A stretch of 64,000 nucleotides of DNA, from positions 288,001 through 352,000 of the forward strand of contig CAVVXN010000003.1 of the NCBI GenBank assembly GCA_963752285.1, read 5' to 3'. The stretch is from an uncultured Planctomycetota bacterium (GTDB lineage Bacteria; Planctomycetota; PLA2; JAEUHO01). The position numbers and the translations under genes were made by a program. This document shows positions 4,284 to 55,747 of the stretch, piece by piece (the first letter of the stretch is position 1; every line of letters begins with the position of its first letter). The notes beneath the pieces are model-generated. The model did no database searches and was not told where the DNA came from. It was given only the letters and a program-made list of their open reading frames with translations.

Positions 4284-6536
4284 GTGACCGAAGGACCCGA
4301 CGAGAAGGAGCGTCCGGACGACTCGGGCCCCCCCGGCGAGCTGGAGGCGCGTCTCGCCTCCATCTTCGGCGGCGAGGACGAGGACGGTTCGGAGGAGACG
4401 ACGCCCGAGCCCGAGGGCGGACCGCGCCTCCGGCTCGACAAGACGGGCGCGCTCGCCGACCGCCCCAAGCTCCAGCCCCGAAAGCCCTATGCGCGCCCCG
4501 GCGCGCCCGGGCCGGAGCCGGCGGTCCCCGCCCTCGGCGGCCCGGGCGCGCCGGGCGCCGCGCCCCGCAAGGCGAGCCTGCCCCCGCCCATCGGCCGGAT
4601 CCCCCCCCTCGGCGGCGAGGCACCCCAAGACGCCCCGCCCGACGACGAGATCGAGATCCCCGCCGGGAGCTTCCTCTACGGCGAGGACAAGACGCCCCGG
4701 GATCTCCCCGCGTTCCGGATCGACCGGCGGCCGGTCACGAACGGCGACTTCGCAGCCTTCGTGCGCGCGACCGGGCACCGGCCTCCCCTCTACTGGCCGG
4801 ACGGCCGGGTGCCGGGGGAGCTCGCCCGTCACCCGGTCGTGGGCGTGGACTACTTCGACGCGCTCGCGTACGCGCGGTGGCGCGGCAAGGACCTGCCGTA
4901 CGAGGACGAGTGGGAGCGCGCCGCACGCGGCACGGACGGCCGCGCGTACCCGTGGGGCAACGACCCCGAGCCGACGCAGGCCAACACCGCCCGCCTCGGC
5001 TTCAAGATGACCGTCCCCGTCGGCTGGCACGAGATGAACGTGTCGCCGGACGGCATGACCGACGCGGTGGGGAACGCGTGGGAGATCACCCACTCCCCGG
5101 CGCCCGGCGGCGGGATCGTCGTGCGCGGCGGCTCGTGGTTCGACTTCGCGCTCTACGCGAAGGTGTGGTTTCGCTTCGCGTCGCGACCCGAGGCGCGGAA
5201 CGGAACGATCGGGTTCCGGTGCGTGCGCCGCGCGAAGCCTCGGCCCGCCGAGCCGCGCGAGGTCCCGCCGCGCGACGCCGACGCGGCGATCGCGGAGCGC
5301 CGCGGGCCGCAGCCGACGGTGGACCCCGGCACGTTCAGCGCCGAGCAGCGTGACCTCGTGCCCGACCTGAGGCGCCTGCGCCAGATGACCCAGGAGCGCG
5401 AGGCGGAGACCCTGTCCCGCCGCGAGCAGGTGTTGATCGGGCGCACCGGCGGCGGTTCGCGCCCCACGCTCGCGCCCGTGAAGGCCACGCCGCCGCCGCC
5501 GATCGCGCGCGCCAGGCCCGCGCCCGCGTCCCCTCCGAAGCCCGAGCCCGCGACGGCGGCCGCCGAGGAGGCCACGCCGGCGCGACCGTTCGCGCCCGAG
5601 GGGGCGACCCGCGCGGCGCCGGCCGCCGCGGAGCGCCCGGCGTCCTCGCCGGTCCCGCCCAAGCCCCGTGCGCCCACGCCGGCGCCCGAGGTCTCGCCGG
5701 CGCGCGAGAAGGAGCCCGCGCTCGACCGCGCGTCGCTCCGCCACGCCGCCGACATGGCCACGAAGGGCGCGGTCGGGAGCGCCGAGCCCGCACCGGAACG
5801 GCCCGAGACCGCGATGCCGCTCGGCTACTGGATCGCCGTCGGCTGCGGGATCGCGCTCGTGGTGACGCTGCTGGTGCTCCTCGTGACCGGCATGGTCGAC
5901 TCCTCGTCGAACGCGACGCCCTGGCTCGCCCGGGGAGGCGGGACGGCCGCGGGCGAGAAGCCCCCGCACTTCGTCGCGCCGCCGCCCGCGCCCACGCCTC
6001 CGCCCGACGAGACGGGCGGTCTCCCGGCGCCGCCTGCCTCCGACCCGCGCGACGCCGACCCGCCCCGCTGGATCGACGCGGCCCGACCGGACGACGTCGA
6101 GACGGTAGAGGAGGGCGTCTGGCTCCTCGTCTTCGCGCACGTGCCGAGCCCCGACGGATCGCGCACCGTGCGCACGGTGGACCAGGTCCACCGCCGGCTC
6201 CGCGACACCGCGGCGCACGTCGCGGTCGTGCTCCCGCGCGGCTACTTCGTGAACGAGGGCGAGGGCCGCCTCGTCACGGAGCGGATCCGGACGCAGCGCC
6301 TCTTCAGCCTCGGCGCCCACACCGACCTCGAGGTCGTGCTCGACCCGCCGGACGGGACCTCCTTCGACGGGGTCCTCCGATCCCGGTACGCCGTCCAGCG
6401 CCCCGAGTCGGCGATCCTCCTGGTGGACGGCCGGATCGAGGCTCGGACCGACCTGGCCGAGGGCGGGTTCACCCTCCCCGCGCTCTCGCGGCTCGCCGCC
6501 CGGGCCGCGGAGATCCGCTCGCGAAACGCTCGCTGA
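4284..6536 (+). CDS. FGE-sulfatase (SUMF1/EgtB/PvdO) domain membrane protein with Pro-rich linkers
   Basis: IPAGSFLYG, FRIDRRPVTN, HPVVGVDY.DA.AYARW.G..LP.E.EWE.AARG..GR.YPWG, GNAWE, RGGSW and IGFRC motifs. A TM helix and a C-terminal extracytoplasmic domain follow. Confidence 0.85.
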   Translation: MTEGPDEKERPDDSGPPGELEARLASIFGGEDEDGSEETTPEPEGGPRLRLDKTGALADRPKLQPRKPYARPGAPGPEPAVPALGGPGAPGAAPRKASLPPPIGRIPPLGGEAPQDAPPDDEIEIPAGSFLYGEDKTPRDLPAFRIDRRPVTNGDFAAFVRATGHRPPLYWPDGRVPGELARHPVVGVDYFDALAYARWRGKDLPYEDEWERAARGTDGRAYPWGNDPEPTQANTARLGFKMTVPVGWHEMNVSPDGMTDAVGNAWEITHSPAPGGGIVVRGGSWFDFALYAKVWFRFASRPEARNGTIGFRCVRRAKPRPAEPREVPPRDADAAIAERRGPQPTVDPGTFSAEQRDLVPDLRRLRQMTQEREAETLSRREQVLIGRTGGGSRPTLAPVKATPPPPIARARPAPASPPKPEPATAAAEEATPARPFAPEGATRAAPAAAERPASSPVPPKPRAPTPAPEVSPAREKEPALDRASLRHAADMATKGAVGSAEPAPERPETAMPLGYWIAVGCGIALVVTLLVLLVTGMVDSSSNATPWLARGGGTAAGEKPPHFVAPPPAPTPPPDETGGLPAPPASDPRDADPPRWIDAARPDDVETVEEGVWLLVFAHVPSPDGSRTVRTVDQVHRRLRDTAAHVAVVLPRGYFVNEGEGRLVTERIRTQRLFSLGAHTDLEVVLDPPDGTSFDGVLRSRYAVQRPESAILLVDGRIEARTDLAEGGFTLPALSRLAARAAEIRSRNAR

Positions 6537-42199: not shown

Positions 42200-42844
42200 C
42201 TAGACGCGCGACCCGAGGTCCGTCAGGAGCTGCGCGAGGTCGTCGGCGTGCTCCTCCTCCTGCGCCAGGATCGACTCGAGCATCCGCCTCGTCGTGGAGT
42301 CCTTGTCGCCGATGAAGGCGATCATCTCGCCGTACGACTCGATGGCGATCCGCTCGGCGACCAGGTCCTCGCGGAGCATCTCCTCGAGATTGCTTCCCTC
42401 CACGTACTCGGCGTGGCTCCGCGTGAGGATCCCCTCGGGCGAGAAGTTCGGCTCGCCGCCGAGCTGCGTGATCCGGCCTGCGATCTGGTCCGCGTGAACC
42501 TGCTCGTCGTTCGCGTGCTGCAGGAACTCCTGCGCCGCCACGTCGCCGCGCACGCCCTGCGCCATGAAGTAGTGGCGCTTGTAGCGGAGCACGCACACGA
42601 TCTCGGTGGCGAGCGCCTCGTTCAGCAGCCTCAGGACGACGGGGCGGTCCGCGCGGTAGCCCTCGATGACCGCGCCCTCCTCCATGTGCCTCCGGGCCCG
42701 CGCGCGGATCGCCTGGATGTCGGAGACGAACGCGCCGACCGGCGCCTCGTGCCCGGTCGTCGCCGCCTGCGCCCGGCCGGCCTTCCCCGCGTCCTTCTTC
42801 CCGTCCCTCTTCGCGTGCTTCGCGCCGTCGTGATGCTTGCTCAT
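42200..42844 (-). CDS. Ferritin-like di-iron protein (bacterioferritin/DpsL-like)
   Basis: LNEALATEIVCVLRYKRHY, EQVHAD, EDLVAERIAIESY and EEEHADDL motifs. Confidence 0.9.
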   Translation of the reverse strand: MSKHHDGAKHAKRDGKKDAGKAGRAQAATTGHEAPVGAFVSDIQAIRARARRHMEEGAVIEGYRADRPVVLRLLNEALATEIVCVLRYKRHYFMAQGVRGDVAAQEFLQHANDEQVHADQIAGRITQLGGEPNFSPEGILTRSHAEYVEGSNLEEMLREDLVAERIAIESYGEMIAFIGDKDSTTRRMLESILAQEEEHADDLAQLLTDLGSRV

Positions 42845-43712: not shown

Positions 43713-44783
43713 TCATGCCGGGAGCTGCTGGCTCAGGCAGTGGAGGGCGCCCAGCCCCTCGACGACGCGCGTCGAGCACAGCCCGACCACGTCGCGACCG
43801 GGGAACGCGCGGCGCAGGGTCCGTAGCGCCTTCTCGTCCTTCCGGCCGCCGAACGTGGGGACGACCACGGTGCAGTTCGCGACGTAGAAGTTCGCGTAGG
43901 AGGCCGGGAGACGGCGGCCGTCCCGGCCGAAGAGGGGGTCGGGCATCGGGAGCGTCCCGACCTCGAGCGGCACGCCGTCCTGGTCGGCCATCGAGCGAAG
44001 TCGCCTCGCGTCGTCCGCGAGCGGAGCGTGGTTGAGGTCCGACGGGTCGTCCTCCTGCGCCACCAGCACGTGCCGCGGGCCGACGAACCGGGCGACGTCG
44101 TCCACGTGCCCGTCGGTGTCGTCGCCCGCGATGCCCTCGCCGAGCCAGAGCACGTGCGTCGCGCCGAGCGTCTCGCGGAGCACCTGCTCGATCTCGGTGT
44201 CGAGGAGCGCCGGGTTCCGGTTGGGGTTCTTGAGGCACTGCGCGCTCGTGAGCAGCGTGCCGCGGCCGTTGCCGTCGATGCTCCCCCCTTCGAGAACGAC
44301 GTCCACGCGCCGCGTCGGCAGACCGTGGATGCCCTGGATCCGCCGCGGGACCCCGTCGTCGGGGACCAGGTCCGGGTACTTCCCGCCCCAGGCGTTGAAC
44401 CGGAAGTCGAGCGCGAGGCGCTCGCGTGTGCGGCCCCGGCCGCGGGCCACGACGATCGGGCCGTAGTCGCGGATCCAGGCGTCGTGCGTCGCGACGCGGT
44501 GGATCCGGACGCGGCGCGCCCCCGCCTCGGCGAGGCGGAGACGGGCCCGCGCCTCCACGGCGGCGTCCCTCGCGAGGACGTGCACCGTCTCGCCGCGGCC
44601 CACGGCCTTCGCGAAGAGCGCGAACACGCCCTCCACCTCCGCGAGGCCGTCGGCCCACGTCACCGGGTCGTGCGGCCACGCGAGCCAGGTCGCCTCGTGA
44701 CGCTCCCACTCGGCCGGCCACCGGTAGCCGAGCGCGCGCGGCGTGGGCCGCGCGAGACGGGCGCCCGTCCGTTCAGCGGCCAC
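43713..44783 (-). CDS. aguA: Agmatine deiminase
   Basis: PAEWE.H.ATWLAWP, DAWIRDYGP, FNAWGGKY, LEGGSI, DDTDGHVDD, SYANF and GALHC motifs. Confidence 0.93.
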   Translation of the reverse strand: MAAERTGARLARPTPRALGYRWPAEWERHEATWLAWPHDPVTWADGLAEVEGVFALFAKAVGRGETVHVLARDAAVEARARLRLAEAGARRVRIHRVATHDAWIRDYGPIVVARGRGRTRERLALDFRFNAWGGKYPDLVPDDGVPRRIQGIHGLPTRRVDVVLEGGSIDGNGRGTLLTSAQCLKNPNRNPALLDTEIEQVLRETLGATHVLWLGEGIAGDDTDGHVDDVARFVGPRHVLVAQEDDPSDLNHAPLADDARRLRSMADQDGVPLEVGTLPMPDPLFGRDGRRLPASYANFYVANCTVVVPTFGGRKDEKALRTLRRAFPGRDVVGLCSTRVVEGLGALHCLSQQLPA

Positions 44784-45660
44784 CGGCGTCGCCGTCCCGG
44801 TAGCGGCGGAGCAGGTCGCCGTACGCGTCGATCCTCCGGTCGCGGAGGAAGGGCCAGCCGCGCCGCGCGCGGTCCACCGCGGTCATGTCGAGGTCGAGCA
44901 CGAGCACGGCCTCGTCCTCGCCCGCCTCCGCGAGGACCCGGCCGTCGGGCGCGACGACGAACGAGTGGCCCCAGAACCGGAGCTCGCCCTCCTGGCCGAC
45001 GCGGTTCACGGCCGCGACGTAGACGCCGTTCTCGATCGCGTGGGCGCGCTGGACCGTCCGCCACGCGTCCCGCTGCGTCTCGAGGAGGTCGAGCTCGCCC
45101 GTCCAGGTCCCGATGGCGGTCGGGAACACGAGCAGCTCCGCGCCCGCCAAGGTGACGAGGCGGGCCGCCTCCGGGTACCACTGGTCCCAGCACACGAGTG
45201 GGCCCACCCGGCAGCCGGGGCCGTCGAACGCGACGAATCCGAGGTCGCCGGGCGCGAAGTAGAACTTCTCGTAGAACCGCGGGTCGTCGGGCACGTGCAT
45301 CTTGCGGTAGAGGCCCGCGACCCGGCCGTCGGGACCGATCAGGACCGCCGTGTTGTGGTGGAGCCCGGCCGCGCGCCGCTCGAACAGGCTCGCGAGGACC
45401 GTGACACCCCGTGCCTTCGCGAACGCCGAGAGCGCCTCGGTCGTGGGCCCCGGGATCGGCTCGGCGAGGTCGAAGCACCGGGCGTCCTCGACCTGGCAGA
45501 AGTAGGGCGTGCGGAACAGCTCCTGCGTCGCGAGGAGCGTCGCGCCGCCGTCCGCGGCGCGACCGAGCAGGCCGAGGGTGCGGTCGAGGTTGTCCACCGC
45601 GTCCTCGGACGCGTGGGTCTGGACCAGGCCGACCCGGACGGGTGCGCGGCTCTCCTGCAT
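44773..45660 (-). CDS. aguB: N-carbamoylputrescine amidase (carbon-nitrogen hydrolase)
   Basis: QELF, YRKMHVPDDPRFYEKFYF.PGDLG, VCWDQWYPE and WPFLRDRR motifs. Adjacent to aguA. Confidence 0.92.
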   Translation of the reverse strand: MQESRAPVRVGLVQTHASEDAVDNLDRTLGLLGRAADGGATLLATQELFRTPYFCQVEDARCFDLAEPIPGPTTEALSAFAKARGVTVLASLFERRAAGLHHNTAVLIGPDGRVAGLYRKMHVPDDPRFYEKFYFAPGDLGFVAFDGPGCRVGPLVCWDQWYPEAARLVTLAGAELLVFPTAIGTWTGELDLLETQRDAWRTVQRAHAIENGVYVAAVNRVGQEGELRFWGHSFVVAPDGRVLAEAGEDEAVLVLDLDMTAVDRARRGWPFLRDRRIDAYGDLLRRYRDGDAGGR

Positions 45661-48358: not shown

Positions 48359-48826
48359 TCAGGACGCGCCGGCCCCCGCGTCCGTCGCCGGGAGCAGACC
48401 GCCGAAGCTGTCGGCGATTGCGCGCAGGATGCAGCGGTCCACCTCGCCGAACGCGCACGCGTCGGGCGATGACAGCGTCAGGAGCCCGACCGTCCGCCCC
48501 ATCGACCGGATGCGCACGACGAGGTGGCTCTCCCTCTCCCGGCCCGCGTCGTCCGCGTCGCCCACAGCGTCGGGGCGGGGGGTGACGGCGTCCTTGTCCT
48601 CCTCCACGACCCGTTCGAGGACGCCCCGCTCGCCCTCCGCCTCCGCGCCGCGCGCGGGTCCCGCCGCCAGCTCCTGTCCCCGGCGCCACCAGATCGCGAG
48701 CCGGCGGGCGCGCGGCACCGCTTCCTCGAGCTTCTCGATCAACGTCGCGCCGAGCGCCTCCGGGTCCGAGGTCTCGAGCGCCTTCGCCTGAAGCGCTTGC
48801 AGCACGGCGGACGCGTCGCACGACAT
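48359..48826 (-). CDS. Small GAF-domain protein
   Basis: G..G...V, SHLVVRI...GRTVGLLTLSS....AF.EVD..IL..IA pattern. Confidence 0.7.
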   Translation of the reverse strand: MSCDASAVLQALQAKALETSDPEALGATLIEKLEEAVPRARRLAIWWRRGQELAAGPARGAEAEGERGVLERVVEEDKDAVTPRPDAVGDADDAGRERESHLVVRIRSMGRTVGLLTLSSPDACAFGEVDRCILRAIADSFGGLLPATDAGAGAS

Positions 48827-48950
48827 GTGGGAATTCTAGCCCGCAAGGCCCATGAACCGGCGCGAATCGCGCGCCCCTGGACACGCGAGGACCTCGACGA
48901 GAGCCGCCCGGCTCGGGCCGCGGCCTCCCGCGCGGACGGCGGGCCGAGAC

Positions 48951-48987
48951 GAAAGAAGGGCGTCGCACACGGGTGCGACGCCCTTCT
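48951..48987 (-). terminator. Intrinsic terminator downstream of the histone gene
   Basis: Perfect 15-bp stem AGAAGGGCGTCGCAC / GTGCGACGCCCTTCT with a 4-nt loop. The minus strand ends in ...TTCTTTC. Confidence 0.75.
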
Positions 48988-49092
48988 CGATCGACAGGTC
49001 TCGGGGTCGGGCCTCGCGGGCCGGGGCCGCGCAGGATCGTGCGCGGCGCGCCGACGTCGCCAGCGACCCGGAACCGAGCCGTGCGTGTCCGG

Positions 49093-49329
49093 CTACAGGT
49101 CCTGGGGCCGGACGGTGCCGCGGTTGTTCGCCGAGCAGCGATGGACCGCGGCGGCGATCATGTCGTGCACCTTCGCGTTCAGCGCGTCGCCGAAGTCGCC
49201 GGCCATGCGCACGCCGCGCGACTTGATGGCTTCCTTCACCTTCGACGCGACGACGACGTTGGACGCCGGCTTGGCGCGTCCCGCCTTGCGCGCGGCCTTC
49301 TTCGCGGTCTTCTTCTTCCTTGCGGCCAT
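49093..49329 (-). CDS. Bacterial histone-fold protein with basic N-terminal tail
   Basis: VVASKVKEAIKSRG.RMAGDFGDALNAKV..MIAAAV.RC.AN.RGTVRPQDL matches the histone-fold pattern of Bdellovibrio/Leptospira-type bacterial histones (VVxSKVK start, RxTV..xD end). AGGAGG RBS. Confidence 0.88.
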   Translation of the reverse strand: MAARKKKTAKKAARKAGRAKPASNVVVASKVKEAIKSRGVRMAGDFGDALNAKVHDMIAAAVHRCSANNRGTVRPQDL

Positions 49330-49429
49330 GAGCTGTCTGCCTCCTGTGGGGACAAGCCGGCTCCGAGAGCCGGACCATCGGGTGTGAAATACCGGGCGTA
49401 AACCTGCCCTGGAACCCGTTCGTTGCTGG

Positions 49430-49438
49430 AATCTACCA
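49430..49438 (-). promoter_or_regulatory. Putative extended -10 promoter (TGgTAGATT) of the histone gene
   Basis: Minus strand reads TTGGTAGATT, about 100 nt upstream of the ATG in a relatively AT-rich spacer. Confidence 0.4.
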
Positions 49439-49612
49439 ACGTCCCCCGGCGGCGACGCACAAGAAAAACCGCCCGGAAGGGCAGAATCCGTCGGTTTCGA
49501 GGCTCCGGGACGCCCGCTTCACCCCTCCCGGACACCCCCGTCGGGGCCCTTTCGGCTCCTCGTGTCGGTCGCCGCTGATAGGTTTCCTCGGTCTTCCGGG
49601 GCTCGCTCCACC

Positions 49613-51220
49613 ATGGTCGCCTCCTCCGAGATCACCACCGCCGAGCTGGACGTTCGACTCGTCAACGCGTTCGCGCGGCCGTTCGAGAACGCCGTCGCGA
49701 CGGCCAGGACCTGCTACTCCTCGCGGGGCATCGTGACCGAGGACGAGGTGTCGGGGAGACCGGACCTCTCGGAGGAGGACCGGGCCCGGAAGGCGGAGGT
49801 CCGCGACCGGATCGCGCGGTCGGTCTACGAGGCCGGACACCACACGACCCTCCAGCACGCGCACTTCCAGTTCGCCCTGAGCGGGGTGTCGCGGCAGTTC
49901 CTGTGGACCTTTCTCCACAGCCACCCCTTCTACAACTCGGAGCAGGTATCCCAGCGGTACGTGACCGTGAAGCCGGAGCACGTGGTGCTCCCGCCGCTGG
50001 AGGGGGAGGCCCGCGCGGTCTTCCTGGACCGCGTCCAGGGCCAGATGGCCGAGTACCGGGACCTGATCGAGCGCCTCGTGCCGGTCGCGGGTCGGGCCTA
50101 CTTCGCGCGCTTCCGGGCCCGCGCCCGGCGCCCCGAGCGGTACGAGAAGGAGATCCGGAAACGAGCGCAGGAGGTGGCCCGGTACGTCCTGCCCCTCGCG
50201 ACGGCGGCGTACCTCTATCACACCGTGAGCGGCCTCACGCTGCTCCGGTACTGGAGGCTCGCCGAGACGTACGACGCCCCGTTCGAGCAGCGCCGCGTGA
50301 TCGGGCGCATGGTCGATCTCCTGCTCGAGGCCGACCCGCTGTTCGGGCGGATCCTCGAGGAGCCCCTTCCGATCGAGGAGACCCCGGAGCACGCGTTCTA
50401 CCTGGCCGCCGGTCTCGGCGACGCCGGGGCGCCTCGCGAGCGCGACCAGTGGGCGGCCGAGTTCGACCAGGCGCTCGGCGGTCGTGTGAGCCGTCTCGTG
50501 GACCACAAGACGCGGAACGAGGAGACCGTGGCGCAGGCCGTGCGCGACGTATTCGGCGTCCCGTCGGCCCGGCTCTCGGACGACGAGGCGATCGACCTCG
50601 CGCTCGACCCGGCGAGGAACCGGATCCTCGGCGAGACGATGAACGTCACGACGCTCGACAAGCTGTCGCGGGCGCTCGTCCACGCGACCTACACGTTCCG
50701 GAAGCGCCTGTCCCACACCGCCGACAGCCAGGACCAGCGACACCGGATGACGCCCGCCTCGCGGCCCTGCCTCCGCGCCTACCTGTCGGACGCGCCCGAC
50801 GTCGTGACGCCGCGCCTGGTCCTCGAGGACGAGGGCTGCCGCCGGGCGTTCGAGGAGAGCATCGCGCGGACGTGGGAGGCGCTGGGTCGCCTCTCCGCGC
50901 TCGGCGCGCCGGACGAGATGCGCGCCTACCTCCTCCCGAACGCCGTCGCCCTCCGGTTCACCGAGTCGAGTGACCTCCTCAACCTGCACCACAAGCTCAA
51001 GATGCGGCTCTGCTACAACGCGCAGGAGGAGATCTGGCGCGCGAGTCGGGACGAGGCGGAGGAGGTCGTCCGCGTGAACCCGCGCCTCGGCCGCCACCTC
51101 CTCCCGCCGTGCACGCTGCGCCACCGCGCGGGCCGCGCGCCGATCTGTCCGGAGGGGACGCGCTACTGCGGCGTCCGCGTCTGGACGCTCGCGCCATCGG
51201 AGTGGGAGCGCGGGATCTGA
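49613..51220 (+). CDS. thyX: FAD-dependent thymidylate synthase with tandem Thy1 domains
   Basis: AARTCYS-like start, GHHTTLQH, SQRY and QEVARYVLP motifs. The second domain has QRHR, YLLPNA, LNLHHKLKMRLCYNAQEEI and CPEG. Confidence 0.9.
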   Translation: MVASSEITTAELDVRLVNAFARPFENAVATARTCYSSRGIVTEDEVSGRPDLSEEDRARKAEVRDRIARSVYEAGHHTTLQHAHFQFALSGVSRQFLWTFLHSHPFYNSEQVSQRYVTVKPEHVVLPPLEGEARAVFLDRVQGQMAEYRDLIERLVPVAGRAYFARFRARARRPERYEKEIRKRAQEVARYVLPLATAAYLYHTVSGLTLLRYWRLAETYDAPFEQRRVIGRMVDLLLEADPLFGRILEEPLPIEETPEHAFYLAAGLGDAGAPRERDQWAAEFDQALGGRVSRLVDHKTRNEETVAQAVRDVFGVPSARLSDDEAIDLALDPARNRILGETMNVTTLDKLSRALVHATYTFRKRLSHTADSQDQRHRMTPASRPCLRAYLSDAPDVVTPRLVLEDEGCRRAFEESIARTWEALGRLSALGAPDEMRAYLLPNAVALRFTESSDLLNLHHKLKMRLCYNAQEEIWRASRDEAEEVVRVNPRLGRHLLPPCTLRHRAGRAPICPEGTRYCGVRVWTLAPSEWERGI

Positions 51221-51227
51221 CCCGTCA

Positions 51228-51333
51228 GGCGGGGACGCCCACCGTGGCGTCGTGGGCGGGTACGCCCACCGTGGCGTCATGGGCGGGGACGCCCACCGTG
51301 GCGTCGCGGGCGGGGACGCGGACCCTGGCGACG
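51228..51333. repeat. 27-bp tandem repeat (3 copies plus a degenerate fourth) with internal palindrome
   Basis: GGCGGGGACGCCCACCGTGGCGTCGTG at 51228, 51255 and 51282, with a degenerate copy at 51309. It starts 7 nt after the thyX stop. Confidence 0.9.
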
Positions 51334-51770: not shown

Positions 51771-51817
51771 CCACGATCGGTTGTGGCGAGATCGAGGGCT
51801 TCCACGAGATATAGTGG
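51771..51817 (+). promoter_or_regulatory. Tandem NrdR boxes upstream of nrdJ
   Basis: CCACGATCGGTTGTGG (51771-51786) and CCACGAGATATAGTGG (51802-51817) are 31 bp apart and resemble the consensus acaCwAtATaTwGtgt. Confidence 0.75.
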
Positions 51818-51997
51818 TTCAGGTCGGCCTCCAGCTCCGGAGCGCGCGGGCCCCCGACGCGGGCCTCCCCTTCCGGTCCGAGGCGGCCGGCCCGCCCCGA
51901 AGGAAGACCCCCGGACGGTAGTTCCCGGACAGCCGGTCGGCGAGGCGCGCGCTCGAGGAGGGGTGCCCGCGCCCCGCCGACCCGAGAAGGAGTGGGC

Positions 51998-54900
51998 ATG
52001 CGGATCCCGCGTCGGTTCACGGTGGCCGGGAAGGACCCCTACGAGGGCCTCGAGTGGGTGGAGCGGACCTCCCAGATCCGGAATCCCGACGGGACGGTCG
52101 TGTTCCACCTCGACCGCGTCCGGGTCCCGTCGGGTTGGTCCTCCGTGGCGACCGACGTCCTCGCGCAGAAGTACTTCCGGCGGGCCGGCGTGCCCCAGGG
52201 CGAGGGCGCCGAGGCCCCGGGCGGGCTCGGCGGCGAGAGCGACGCCCGTCAGGTGTTCCACCGCCTCGCGGGCTGCTGGACCCACTGGGGCCGACGCTAC
52301 GGCTACTTCGACGGCGAGGACGACGCGAAGGCCTTCTACGACGAGCTCGTCCGGATGCTCGCCGACCAGCGCGCGGCTCCGAACAGCCCCCAGTGGTTCA
52401 ACACCGGTCTCCACTTCGCGTACGGCATCGACGGCCCCCCGCAGGGCCACCACTACGTGGACCCCGAGACGGGCCGACTCCACAAGAGCAAGAGCGCGTA
52501 CGAGCGTCCGCAGCCGCACGCTTGCTTCATCCAGCGGGTCGAGGACGACCTCGTGGGCCCGGGCGGGATCATGGACCTGTGGGTGCGCGAGGGGCGCCTC
52601 TTCAAGTACGGGTCGGGCACCGGGACGAACTTCAGCGCGCTCCGCGCCGAGGCGGAGCCGCTCTCGGGCGGCGGGAAGTCGTCCGGGCTCATGTCGTTCC
52701 TGAAGATCGGCGACCGCGCCGCGGGCGCCATCAAGTCGGGCGGGACGACGCGCCGGGCCGCGAAGATGGTCTGCCTCGACGTGGACCACCCGGACATCGA
52801 GGCCTTCATCGACTGGAAGGTGATCGAGGAGCAGAAGGTCGCCGCGCTCGTGAGCGGCTCCCGCATGCTCGCCCGGTGCCTCGACGCCGTGATGGCGGCC
52901 TGCCACGCGGGGCCCGACGCCGACACGCGGTTCGACCCGAAGCAGAACCGTCGTCTCGCGGACGCGATGCGCGACGCGCGGCGTTCGATGGTCCCGGCGA
53001 GCTACGTGCAGCGCGCCATCGCGCTCGCCGGCCAGGGGCACACCTCCATCGAGATCCCGACGTACACGACGGACTGGGACGGCGAGGCCTACCTGACCGT
53101 CTCGGGCCAGAACAGCAACAACTCCGTCCGACTCTCGAACGGGTTCATGCAGGCCGTCCGCGACCAGGCGCCGTGGCCGCTGATCCGTCGGACCGACGGC
53201 GAGGTCGCCGACACGGTCCCCGCGCGACGGCTGTGGGACAAGATCGCGTACAGCGCGTGGGCCTGCGCCGACCCGGGCGTGCAGTTCGACACGACGATCA
53301 ACGAGTGGCACACGTGTCCGAGGGACGGGCGCATCAACGCGTCGAACCCGTGCTCCGAGTACATGTTCCTCGACGACACGGCGTGCAACCTCGCCAGCCT
53401 GAACCTCGTCACCTTCCTCGACCCCGCGACGGGGCGCTTCGACGTCGAGGGCTACCGCCACGCGATCCGGCTGTGGACGATCGTTCTCGAGATCTCCGTG
53501 CTGATGGCCCAGTATCCGAGTCGCGAGATCGCCCGACGCTCGTACGTGTACCGCACGCTCGGTCTCGGGTACGCGAACGTCGGATCGCTCCTGATGCGCC
53601 TCGGGATCCCCTACGACTCCGACGAGGGACGCGCGTGGACGGGCGCGCTCACGGCGATCCTCACCGGCGAGGCGTACGCGACCTCGGCCGAGATGGCCGG
53701 CCGGCTCGGGCCCTTCGAGGCGTTCGGGCGAAACCGCGAGGACATGCTCCGGGTCATGCGCAACCACCGCCGCGCCGCGTACCACGCGACGAAGGGCGAG
53801 TACGAGGGCCTGACCGTGGCCCCGCAGGGCCTCGACCCGACCCACGTCCCCGAGGACCTGCTCTACGCCGCCCGCGACGCGTGGGACCGCGCGCTCGATC
53901 TGGGCGAGCGTCACGGGTACCGCAACGCGCAGACGACCGTGGTGGCGCCCACCGGCACGATCGGGCTGGTGATGGACTGCGACACGACGGGCATCGAGCC
54001 GGACTTCGCGCTCGTGAAGTTCAAGAAGCTCGCGGGAGGTGGGTACTTCCGGATCATCAACGGTGCGGTGCCCGCCGCGCTCGCGCGTCTGGGCTACGCG
54101 AAGAGCCAGATCGACGACATCGTCCGGTACGTGAAGGGCAGCGGCACGCTCGTGGGCGCCCCCGAGATCGACGACCAGGCGCTCCGGCGCCGGGGCTTCG
54201 ACGACGAGGCGATCTCGAAGATCGAGGCCCAGCTCCCCGCGGCCTTCGACGTGGGCTTCGTGATCAACCGCTGGTCGCTCGGCGACGCGTTCCTCCGCGA
54301 CCGCCTCGGGATCGCGCCCGAGGTCTTCGAGGCGCCCGACTTCGACCTGCTCCGCCACCTCGGGTTCACGAAGGACCAGGTCCGACGCGCGAACGACGCG
54401 ATCTGCGGCACCATGACCGTGGAGGGGGCCCCGCACCTCCGGGACGAGCACCTCCCCGTCTTCGACTGCGCGTCCAAGTGCGGCCGGTACGGCAAGCGCT
54501 CGATCCACTGGATGGGGCACATCCGGCAGATGGCCGCGGCGCAGCCGTTCGTCTCCGGGGCGATCTCGAAGACGATCAACATGCCCAACGAGGCCCTGGT
54601 GGAGGACGTCGAACACGCGTACGAGACGTCCTGGCGCTCGATGCTGAAGGCCCTGGCCCTCTACCGGGACGGCTCGAAGCTGAGCCAGCCGCTGAACGCC
54701 GTGACCGACGACGACGACGACGCCGACCTCGCGGGGTCGGCGGAGACGCCGACCGCAGGGGGGAAGGTCGCCGAGGTGGCCCGCCAGGTCGCGGAGCGCG
54801 CGGTCGTCCGCTATCTCCGCGAGCGTCGCCGCCTCCCCTCGCGCCGGGGCGGGTACACCCAGAAGGCCACGGTCGGCGGCCACAAGGTCTACCTCCGGAC

Positions 54901-55747
54901 GGGCGAGTACGCGGACGGTCAGCTCGGCGAGATCTTCATCGACATGCACAAGGAGGGCGCGGCCTTCCGGAGCCTCATGAACTGCTTCGCGATCGCCGTG
55001 TCGCTGGGTCTCCAGTACGGCGTTCCCCTCGAGGAGTTCGCGGACGCGTACGTCTTCACGCGGTTCGAGCCGAACGGGATCGTGGACGGCAACGACCGGA
55101 TCAAGCTCTCCACGTCGATCATCGACTACATCTTCCGCGAGCTCGCCATCACGTACCTCGACCGCAAGGACCTCGCCCAGGTCACGAGCGAGGACCTCCA
55201 GCCGGACGTCGTTCGCCGGGACCCGGGGTCGGGCGGCGAGGAGCCGGCCGAGGGCGAGGAGCGCCCCGTGGAGGCCGAGACCGCGGAGGGCGAGCCCGTG
55301 GAGGCGCGGCCCGTGCCGAGGGTTTTCGCGCCGGAGACGATCCACCCGGTGAGCCGGGGCCTCGCGGGCGAGAACGGCCGGGCAGGGAACGGGAACGGGA
55401 ACGGGAACGGGAACGGCAAGAGCAACGGCAACGGCCACGCACACGGGAGCGGGCACGAGTCCGGCGGCGGCGCGGTCCCCGTCACGCCCGGACGGGAAGA
55501 CGTCGTCGCCGACGCGACCGCGCGGGTCCGCGGGTTCGCCCTCACCCCCGCGGGCGAGGCGGCGCGCGCCGCCGTGACGACCCCCGCCACGAACGGGCGA
55601 CGCGTGACGCTCTCCCACCAGGCCGTCCAGGCCCGGCTGAAGGGCTACACGGGCGACGCGTGCTCCGAGTGCGGCTCGTTCACGATGGTCCGGAACGGGT
55701 CGTGCCTCAAGTGCGACACGTGCGGCGGCACGAGCGGCTGCTCGTGA
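51998..55747 (+). CDS. nrdJ: Class II (adenosylcobalamin-dependent) ribonucleotide reductase
   Basis: [39 protein letters not shown] and ISKTINMP motifs, a TSCPD-type domain, and a C-terminal CSECG...[21 protein letters not shown]. Confidence 0.97.
55385..55414 (+). repeat. In-frame (GGGAAC)x5 microsatellite encoding (Gly-Asn)5 in the nrdJ linker
   Basis: Direct reading of the sequence. Confidence 0.9.

Follow-up and report, generated by a model that had tools for sequence, protein, structure and literature searches.

A probable face-to-face histone with a basic N-terminal tail in an uncultured Planctomycetota bacterium

Can a bacterial histone carry a tail of the eukaryotic kind? The question is raised by a short gene of an uncultured Planctomycetota bacterium (assembly GCA_963752285.1). 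The gene lies in a 64,000 nt stretch of DNA, hereafter the window, that spans positions 288,001 to 352,000 of contig CAVVXN010000003.1; all coordinates below are those of the window. A preliminary description, made from the letters of the window, had presented the product as a bacterial histone with a eukaryote-like basic tail. Judged by its sequence, the protein belongs to the face-to-face (FtF) type of alpha3-truncated prokaryotic histones, which has been described before, and is a clean example of it, not a eukaryote-like oddity. Our best explanation of the locus as a whole is an FtF histone that wraps DNA as a tetramer in the manner of HLp from Leptospira perolatii, bears a tail with an electrostatic role and is expressed from an autonomous cassette. 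We give this explanation a probability of roughly 0.72. The gene and its two parts are as follows.

49093..49329, minus strand: histone gene, 78 amino acids (aa) plus stop, identified from the list of open reading frames (ORFs) and its translation, a G+C content at third codon positions (GC3) of 0.95 and 90 homologues
49261..49329, minus strand: basic disordered tail, codons 1-23 (7 K, 3 R, 8 A, no D or E), identified from composition, model confidence and homologues
49096..49260, minus strand: alpha3-truncated histone fold, codons 24-78 (alpha1 28-37, alpha2 46-67, one-turn alpha3 75-77), with the FtF signature, identified with AlphaFold2, Foldseek and alignment

Gene, fold and family of the histone

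The histone ORF starts with ATG and ends with TAG. The G+C content of the window is 74.9%, and long spurious ORFs therefore abound on both of its strands. The codon-position signature of the histone ORF (GC3 0.95 and GC2, the value for second positions, 0.50) is that of the other genes in the window. We found 90 homologues of the 78-aa protein at E <= 1e-3, the query included, and 360 in a representative library. A family profile run against the 524 stop-to-stop frames of the window matched this ORF only, so that no second histone-fold ORF was found there. We conclude that the ORF is a genuine gene encoding a bacterial histone.

Among the sequences of solved structures the best match is HLp (9qt0_A; E 9.7e-10, residues 23-77), followed by the archaeal FtF histone HTkC (9f2c; E 3.3e-4), while HBb/Bd0055 of Bdellovibrio is marginal (E 0.07). 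An alignment of 71 of the 90 homologues was the input to a single-chain AlphaFold2 model. The mean predicted local distance difference test value of the model is 79.8, with block means of 90-94 over the fold and values below 50 for residues 1-17. The modelled helices are alpha1 (28-37), alpha2 (46-67, 22 residues) and a helical turn of three residues (75-77), which gives the shortened alpha2 and the alpha3 of 3-4 residues that are characteristic of FtF histones. In a Foldseek comparison against the PDB, HLp ranked first with a template modelling (TM) score on target of 0.94, a root-mean-square deviation of 0.8 A and 47% identity over 55 columns. HTkC (TM 0.89), HBb (0.81-0.85) and nucleosomal histones (0.4-0.6) ranked lower. 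The histone fold is thus confirmed by sequence comparison with solved structures, by the AlphaFold2 model and by fold comparison, and the preliminary description was right to place it in the C-terminal part of the ORF. It had chosen Bd0055 for comparison; the tetrameric HLp serves better, both by E-value and by TM score.

FtF histones are defined by a torus-shaped tetramer, and passages in Schwab et al. (2024, PMC11390915) list R48, N52, R54, T56 and D61, plus K16, as the strongest conserved positions of their profile. In the planctomycete histone these are R64, N68, R70, T72, D77 and K32, with identical spacing. The first five are invariant in the 71 aligned homologues and make up half of the ten invariant columns of that alignment. 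The dimer-dimer residues R64 and N68 (spacing +4) align with the R and N of HLp, and the RxTxxxxD motif, or RD clamp, is present as R70, T72 and D77. The three alpha1 lysines (profile K16 together with positions 14 and 20) are likewise found: K32 is nearly invariant, K30 invariant and K36 present. At sequence level, then, every testable feature of FtF membership is there.

HLp (PDB 9QT0, 9QT1 and 9QT2; Hu et al. 2025, PMC12701072) shares with the planctomycete histone the truncated alpha3, the R, N and R residues of the tetramer and the RD clamp. Sections of Hu et al. assign the tetramer contacts of HLp to R49, N53 and R55, the RD clamp to R55-D62 and the contacts with DNA to A13, S14, K15, K17, K21, T27, G29, T56 and T57. 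Residue numbers shift by +15 from HLp to the planctomycete histone. The three tetramer residues then become R64, N68 and R70, and seven of the DNA contacts are identical (A28, S29, K30, K32, K36, G44 and T72). HTkC of Thermococcus kodakarensis (PDB 9F2C) has the same fold and FtF signature, but no tail. HBb/Bd0055 of Bdellovibrio bacteriovorus (PDB 8CMP, 8FVX and 9EZZ) also has the alpha3-truncated fold, the RD clamp and the conserved alpha1 lysines, but lacks the R and N dimer-dimer residues and a long tail; in the sequence alignment it carries S and D at the positions of R64 and N68.

By analogy with HLp, two handshake dimers of the planctomycete histone would join into a ring-shaped, rigid homotetramer through R64, N68, R70 and the C-terminal turn. 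In the parts of Hu et al. (2025, PMC12701072) on its function, HLp forms a tetramer, wraps approximately 60 bp of DNA, reorganises the nucleoid in E. coli and binds DNA without sequence preference. The planctomycete ring may, by homology, bind DNA in the same way around its positively charged rim, without sequence preference and with about 60 bp wrapped.

Several observations weigh against this picture. The homotetramer is predicted from conserved residues only, and three of the six dimer-dimer contacts of HLp are changed here (S52 to A67, T61 to Q76 and F63 to L78). Two of its DNA contacts are changed as well (T27 to M42 and T56 to G71). In Pfam no match to the histone was above threshold, the best being DUF1931 at E 0.025 and 15.2 bits against a cut-off of 21.8, and the NCBIfam search gave no matches to the protein.

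Two other histone families were considered for the protein. The pseudodimeric histone DUF1931 (PF09123) was ruled out, as its sub-threshold match is limited to residues 44-78 and there is one fold in the protein instead of a doublet. A nucleosomal histone (Pfam CBFD_NFYB_HMF or Histone) was ruled out, as these families gave no match even at E <= 10 and nucleosome chains reach the low TM scores given above.

The protein could also be a dimer-only histone like HBb/Bd0055, which would bend or coat DNA without tetrameric wrapping. HBb is after all a significant structural match too, and half of the interface residues of HLp are not identical here. However, R64 and N68 are present and invariant in the 71 homologues, whereas the bacterial dimer histones lack R48 and N52 according to the passages of Schwab et al. 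(2024, PMC11390915) that describe them, and the E-value for HLp is better than that for HBb by a factor of about eight orders of magnitude. We regard a dimer-only histone as unlikely and keep the FtF tetramer as the preferred reading.

The basic N-terminal tail

The tail, residues 1-23 (MAARKKKTAKKAARKAGRAKPAS), consists to a large part of 8 Ala, 7 Lys and 3 Arg and has no acidic residue. It holds ARK at residues 3-5 and 13-15 and KAARK at residues 11-15. The length and composition given for it in the preliminary description, 23 aa with 7 Lys, 3 Arg, two ARK and one KAARK, are correct.

In the reading frame, which is open from 49518, no ATG, GTG or TTG precedes the ATG at 49329. The next in-frame starts, a GTG at codon 31 and an ATG at codon 42, lie within the fold, and either of them would delete the invariant S29-K30. 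For comparison we used loci from a scan of species-representative genomes, which matched 243 stretches. A relative is encoded by 174 of these, and the best 80 of the 174 are the loci (numbered with L) referred to below. They include 27 metagenome-assembled genomes of Planctomycetota, Nitriliruptorales (Actinomycetota), Myxococcota, three Iainarchaeota archaea and a few others.

The 15 closest planctomycete loci all have the start context ATGGC, with a Shine-Dalgarno (SD) sequence of 4-6 nt at the homologous start. M-A-A-R/K is written in these loci with several different Ala and Arg codons, and this synonymous variation shows protein-level selection on the start of the tail. In the alignment of 71 homologues, M1 is invariant and A2 nearly invariant. 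The evidence supports a 23-aa tail that is translated, disordered and strongly basic. A start downstream of the tail had been named in the preliminary description as something that would undo it; the position of the first start, the SD and the synonymous variation all speak for the full tail.

The preliminary description had also proposed a survey of the tail among orthologues. We found an N-terminal extension before the fold in all 90 homologues, all of them basic tails, with a length of 13-67 aa and a median of 24 aa. The median content of K+R in these tails is 45%, and any acidic residue occurs in 10 of the 90. The tail opens with MAARK in 47 and with MAAR[KR]K in 50 of the 90 homologues, and the opening MAARKKK is conserved within the planctomycete clade.

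KAARK is the five-residue context of H3 K27, and it was this likeness that made the tail seem eukaryote-like. We found KAARK in only six of the 90 tails. In 200,000 shuffles of residues 2-23 the probability of KAARK was 0.040, that of at least two ARK 0.038 and that of at least one ARK 0.32. A peptide this rich in Lys, Ala and Arg yields KAARK in 4% of shuffles, and the resemblance to the context of H3 K27 is therefore a matter of chance. We reject the H3-likeness of KAARK and ARK as compositional; a conserved modification-site motif of the eukaryotic type was not found in the tails. The caution voiced in the preliminary description, that the H3 similarity could be a low-complexity coincidence, was well placed, and its label eukaryote-like was not. 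The tail is of a low-complexity Lys/Ala/Arg kind common to all 90 homologues and is not specifically eukaryote-like. Since the resemblance to H3 is compositional, the tail has no bearing on the origin of eukaryotic histone tails.

Nor is the tail unusual among its own kind, as had been supposed. According to Schwab et al. (2024, PMC11390915), bacterial FtF histones, those of Planctomycetota included, commonly have tails, mostly with a positive charge, and archaeal FtF histones are generally without them. The planctomycete histone falls exactly in the class with positively charged tails described there. The general literature is less explicit, and part of the text of Hocher et al. (2023) has most bacterial singlets without long tails. 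HLp has 63 aa, of which the first six or seven at the N-terminus are unresolved in the crystals according to the structural passages of Hu et al. (2025, PMC12701072); the tail of the planctomycete histone has 23 residues, of which 10 are basic.

The tails of eukaryotic core histones and of Asgard nucleosomal histones are likewise N-terminal, disordered and basic, and leave the fold beside a DNA contact. The fold class differs, the planctomycete fold being alpha3-truncated and a predicted homotetramer, not a nucleosomal heterodimer. The planctomycete tail also differs in its low complexity, in that its H3-like five residues are not conserved and in that a scan of 49 window ORFs showed no modification machinery. 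Similar low-complexity basic extensions on DNA-binding folds are described in parts of two papers (PMC5974015, PMC3553676) for the C-terminal region of mycobacterial MDP1/HupB and the PAKKA repeats of Ku. These are C-terminal and sit on unrelated folds, whereas the histone tail is N-terminal.

What could such a tail do? It joins the fold just before A28-S29-K30, which correspond to the DNA contact called the paired ends of helices in HLp, and this would put the tail on or beside bound DNA, running along a duplex or between duplexes. By sequence, 9 basic and 5 acidic residues give the fold a net charge of +4, and with the +10 of the tail the monomer reaches +14. Four tails would add about +40, so that a tetramer of about +16 without them would reach about +56, against approximately 120 phosphates in 60 bp. 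The most likely role of the tail is a plain electrostatic one, in which it would increase the affinity for DNA, neutralise charge and perhaps bridge duplexes.

To our knowledge, HLp (bacterial) and HTkC (archaeal) are the only FtF histones that have been studied at the bench. The planctomycete histone adds a well-defined member with a tail to this group.

Probable transcription unit and neighbouring genes

The signals around the histone gene, listed from the start codon outwards and then past the stop, are the following.

49340..49345, minus strand: Shine-Dalgarno sequence AGGAGG, 10-nt spacer to the ATG
49357..49373, minus strand: 7-bp stem-loop CCGGCTC-TCG-GAGCCGG in the presumed 5' untranslated region, at the same place in L001-L003
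49430..49438, minus strand: extended -10-like motif TGGTAGATT, 109 nt 5' of the ATG, aligning in register with relatives
49459..49484, minus strand: GC hairpin and T tract CTGCCCTTCCGGGCGG TTTTTCTTGT, from the terminator scan, with the start of the T tract 30 nt upstream of the motif's TG
48953..48988, minus strand: terminator-like hairpin with a 16-bp perfect stem, a free energy of -30.6 kcal/mol and a weak T tract TTCGTCTC, 104 nt after the stop

The strong AGGAGG ribosome binding site of the preliminary description is there, 10 nt before the ATG. Its candidate extended -10 is conserved in relatives: among 28 planctomycete upstream regions of 260 nt (the window and 27 loci), 23 contain TGnTAnnnT once and only once, 71-192 nt from the ATG. 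In mononucleotide shuffles of each upstream sequence it occurred in 4-32 of 200 trials. Fifteen of the 23 loci with the motif also have a run of at least four T that starts 22-40 nt upstream of it. We came across no published report of such a conserved extended -10-like motif upstream of planctomycete histone genes. The leader hairpin at 49373..49357 is kept in L001-L003 with some two-sided changes, a weak comparison of four sequences. At gathering thresholds Rfam had no match anywhere in the window, and hence there is no known leader RNA or riboswitch near the histone gene.

Downstream of the gene, hairpins with a free energy of -18.9 kcal/mol or stronger were found in 12 of 16 loci, and a GGCGTC...GACGCC stem core followed by a T-containing tail in six of the 16, both counted without a shuffle control. 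The terminator claimed in the preliminary description is borne out as far as the perfect hairpin goes, and less so by the weak T tract.

A few results count against a transcription unit of this form. The motif TGnTAnnnT has no match in five of the 28 planctomycete loci, a scan of 48700-49700 for sigma-70 promoters with two hexamers found none, and the hairpin at 48988..48953 is not listed by the consensus terminator scan. The histone gene is probably its own transcription unit, given its conserved promoter-like motif, strong SD and the hairpin beyond the stop codon, and this agrees with the monocistronic gene of the preliminary description. In brief, the autonomous cassette would consist of its own promoter of the extended -10 type, a leader of about 95 nt, the strong SD and the hairpin after the stop. 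Its product may be abundant, as had been proposed.

The hairpin and T tract at 49459..49484 may be an UP-like element or the terminator of an upstream transcript. This terminator-like element sits in a divergent intergenic region without an upstream gene on the same strand. Elements of a hairpin plus T recur at the equivalent place in several relatives, as seen by eye in the alignment.

The genes closest to the histone gene are given below.

49562..51220, plus strand: double-domain ThyX (flavin-dependent thymidylate synthase), 552 aa, divergent upstream, Pfam Thy1 1.2e-48 in 2 stretches
51992..55747, plus strand: NrdJ, B12-dependent ribonucleotide reductase, NCBIfam NF005736, 1939 bits against a cut-off of 1737
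48359..48826, minus strand: stand-alone GAF-domain protein, 155 aa, downstream on the same strand, Pfam GAF E 5.8e-5, 24.1 bits against 22.4

For ThyX, the NCBIfam thyX score is 85 bits, just below the cut-off of 87.9. The protein is about twice the usual length, and this fused double-domain form is present in 12 loci with 66-78% identity. In Leptospira the neighbours of the histone gene are different, namely SMC and methionine aminopeptidase, as opposed to thyX, nrdJ and the GAF protein here.

We compared 11 neighbouring genes of the window with the 80 loci by tblastn. The thyX gene was found beside the histone gene in 12 loci, adjacent and divergent in all 12, and nrdJ in 15. Of the 27 planctomycete loci, 25 have one or both next to the histone gene; the loci of other phyla never do. 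In 24 of these 25 the gene for deoxynucleoside triphosphate (dNTP) supply is upstream and divergent. In the remaining locus, L034, only the histone gene is inverted, so that nrdJ lies downstream on the same strand, and the upstream motif is retained. A homologue of the GAF protein is encoded beside the histone gene in 14 of the 80 loci, all of them Planctomycetota. Other kept neighbours are an epimerase (11 loci), a DUF1573 protein (15) and a putrescine pathway pair (11 and 9). A search of the full-text literature for work linking bacterial histones with ribonucleotide reductase, thymidylate synthase and Planctomycetota found none, and hence no published description of this adjacency.

The adjacency, which is kept by so many planctomycete loci, could mean that the histone, instead of being a global nucleoid protein, is a specialised replication-linked factor tied to thyX and nrdJ, the genes of dNTP supply. 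The inversion of the histone gene alone in L034 fits such a tie. However, all Actinomycetota and Myxococcota loci with the same histone lack the adjacency, and inheritance of one ancestral histone-thyX-nrdJ order suffices to explain it. The shared intergenic region has no NrdR-type box; with a 16-nt NrdR-box consensus, no match at <=3 mismatches was found in this region or elsewhere in the window. Characterised relatives, moreover, bind DNA without sequence preference. A specialised factor of this kind is improbable.

An idea that reaches further, and to which we give little credence, joins the neighbourhood to the tail. A cassette kept beside thyX and nrdJ, with the motif retained in the inverted L034, could couple histone supply to DNA replication, like the co-expression of histones and ribonucleotide reductase in S phase. 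The near-invariant processed end A-A-R-K-K-K could also be a specific site of recognition or modification and not a matter of charge only. The conserved MAARKKK opening, the promoter-like motif and the adjacency to thyX and nrdJ are modest new leads.

Some observations concern the surroundings of these genes. An AT-rich palindrome CCACGAGATATAGTGG at 51803-51818 (plus strand), about 190 nt upstream of nrdJ, has by eye four mismatches to the NrdR-box consensus and did not come up in the search at <=3 mismatches. Between thyX and nrdJ, at approximately 51233-51320 (plus strand), a unit of about 27 nt is repeated in tandem, in three to four copies that each contain the inverted repeat GACGCCCACCGTGGCGTC.

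Further away, a ferritin/Dps-like protein of 214 aa is encoded at 42203-42844 (minus strand). It matches Pfam Ferritin (1.8e-25), and the bfr and Dps models of NCBIfam are all below cut-off. The protein has an N-terminal extension of about 65-70 aa with a start rich in Lys and His, and none of the fetched loci has a counterpart of it. Encoded 6 kb from the histone gene, it may be a second protein associated with DNA. A pair of genes for putrescine synthesis at 43716-45660 (minus strand), a few kb from the histone gene, encodes agmatine deiminase and N-carbamoylputrescine amidase, identified by their best NCBIfam matches, which are below cut-off. This pair is kept in 9 and 11 planctomycete loci.

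Conserved opening, tail length and relatives

In a eukaryote-like regulatory tail, dedicated enzymes would place marks on specific lysines, such as that of KAARK, and remove them, as they do on H3. Conservation is indeed strong over the first seven residues, with MAAR[KR]K in more than half of the homologues, and this is more than charge alone requires. With an alanine at position 2 methionine aminopeptidase removes the initiator methionine, so that Ala2 predicts an exposed A-A-R-K end. On the other hand, KAARK is as rare among the tails and as frequent among the shuffles as reported above, and past the first seven residues neither the length nor the order of the tail is fixed. The 49 window ORFs scanned (38 plus 11) and the 11 neighbour genes checked in relatives showed no SET, GNAT, sirtuin or HDAC domain. 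We consider a regulatory tail quite improbable and hold to the electrostatic one.

The scan of the 49 ORFs showed no HU or IHF either, and the eleven further small or doubtful ORFs among them had no Pfam matches. Two Pfam matches in the window, PIG-L and PAD_porph, might be mistaken for histone modifiers and were set aside. The former is a thiol/sugar deacetylase family, and the latter is the agmatine deiminase, for which the name PAD_porph should not be taken to mean a histone-arginine deiminase.

That the tail is an annotation artefact, with translation from a downstream start, has a negligible probability: over-extended starts do occur in the family, and a longer database form of HLp was rejected by its authors on the position of the SD (passages in Hu et al. 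2025, PMC12701072), but here the SD precedes the long form and gives the opposite answer, no in-frame start exists between codons 1 and 31, and synonymous changes in relatives leave the tail conserved as a protein sequence.

We also compared tail lengths over the 80 loci. The starts of the relatives were chosen by an SD/ATG heuristic that is clearly off for a few loci; the start of L025 is too short, and that of L061 is probably over-extended. With these starts, tail length tracks lineage.

Iainarchaeota: 3 aa
Myxococcota: 7-18 aa, plus a doubtful 55 aa in L061
Planctomycetota: 13-28 aa
Actinomycetota (Nitriliruptorales): mostly 47-81 aa, with AKKT/AKKA repeats; exceptions are L020 (9 aa) and L049 (3 aa)

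This is a natural series of tail lengths on nearly the same fold, from 3 aa in Iainarchaeota to 47-81 aa in Nitriliruptorales, and it makes the role of prokaryotic histone tails directly testable in vitro.

None of the 80 loci is identical to the window, and the highest core identity is 80% (L001). The Myxococcota relatives are mostly Nannocystaceae, including Paraliomyxa miuraensis and Plesiocystis pacifica. A tree of the 80 cores, from which L025 was left out, is built on 55 columns, and 41 of its 72 inner branches are unresolved; it supports clustering by lineage and gives no firm transfer scenario. In this weak tree the window is placed with L001-L003 and the actinobacterial clade at a Shimodaira-Hasegawa-like approximate likelihood ratio test (SH-aLRT) value of 92, in a branch that is not starred.

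In the Nitriliruptorales loci L015, L019, L022, L026, L027, L029, L043, L046, L053, L054, L056, L059 and L071, with the histone match near position 6001 in most, the same fold carries tails of 47-81 aa with 14-27 Lys+Arg. Their grouping with the clade of the window in the weakly supported tree may reflect a transfer between phyla followed by tail expansion. The histones of the Iainarchaeota L063, L075 and L080, which are tail-less, fall within the planctomycete part of the tree near L004 and L005 (SH-aLRT 95, long branches). This placement agrees with the transfers between archaea and bacteria discussed by Schwab et al.

Among further matches, P0122 (765 aa, 9 matched stretches) was considered as a poly-histone and rejected, being a degenerate repeat protein. 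P0092, P0096 and P0101, of 148-175 aa, have a doublet histone fold with cores like those of Myxococcota. Their N-termini are hydrophobic and resemble signal peptides, which is odd for a DNA-binding protein.

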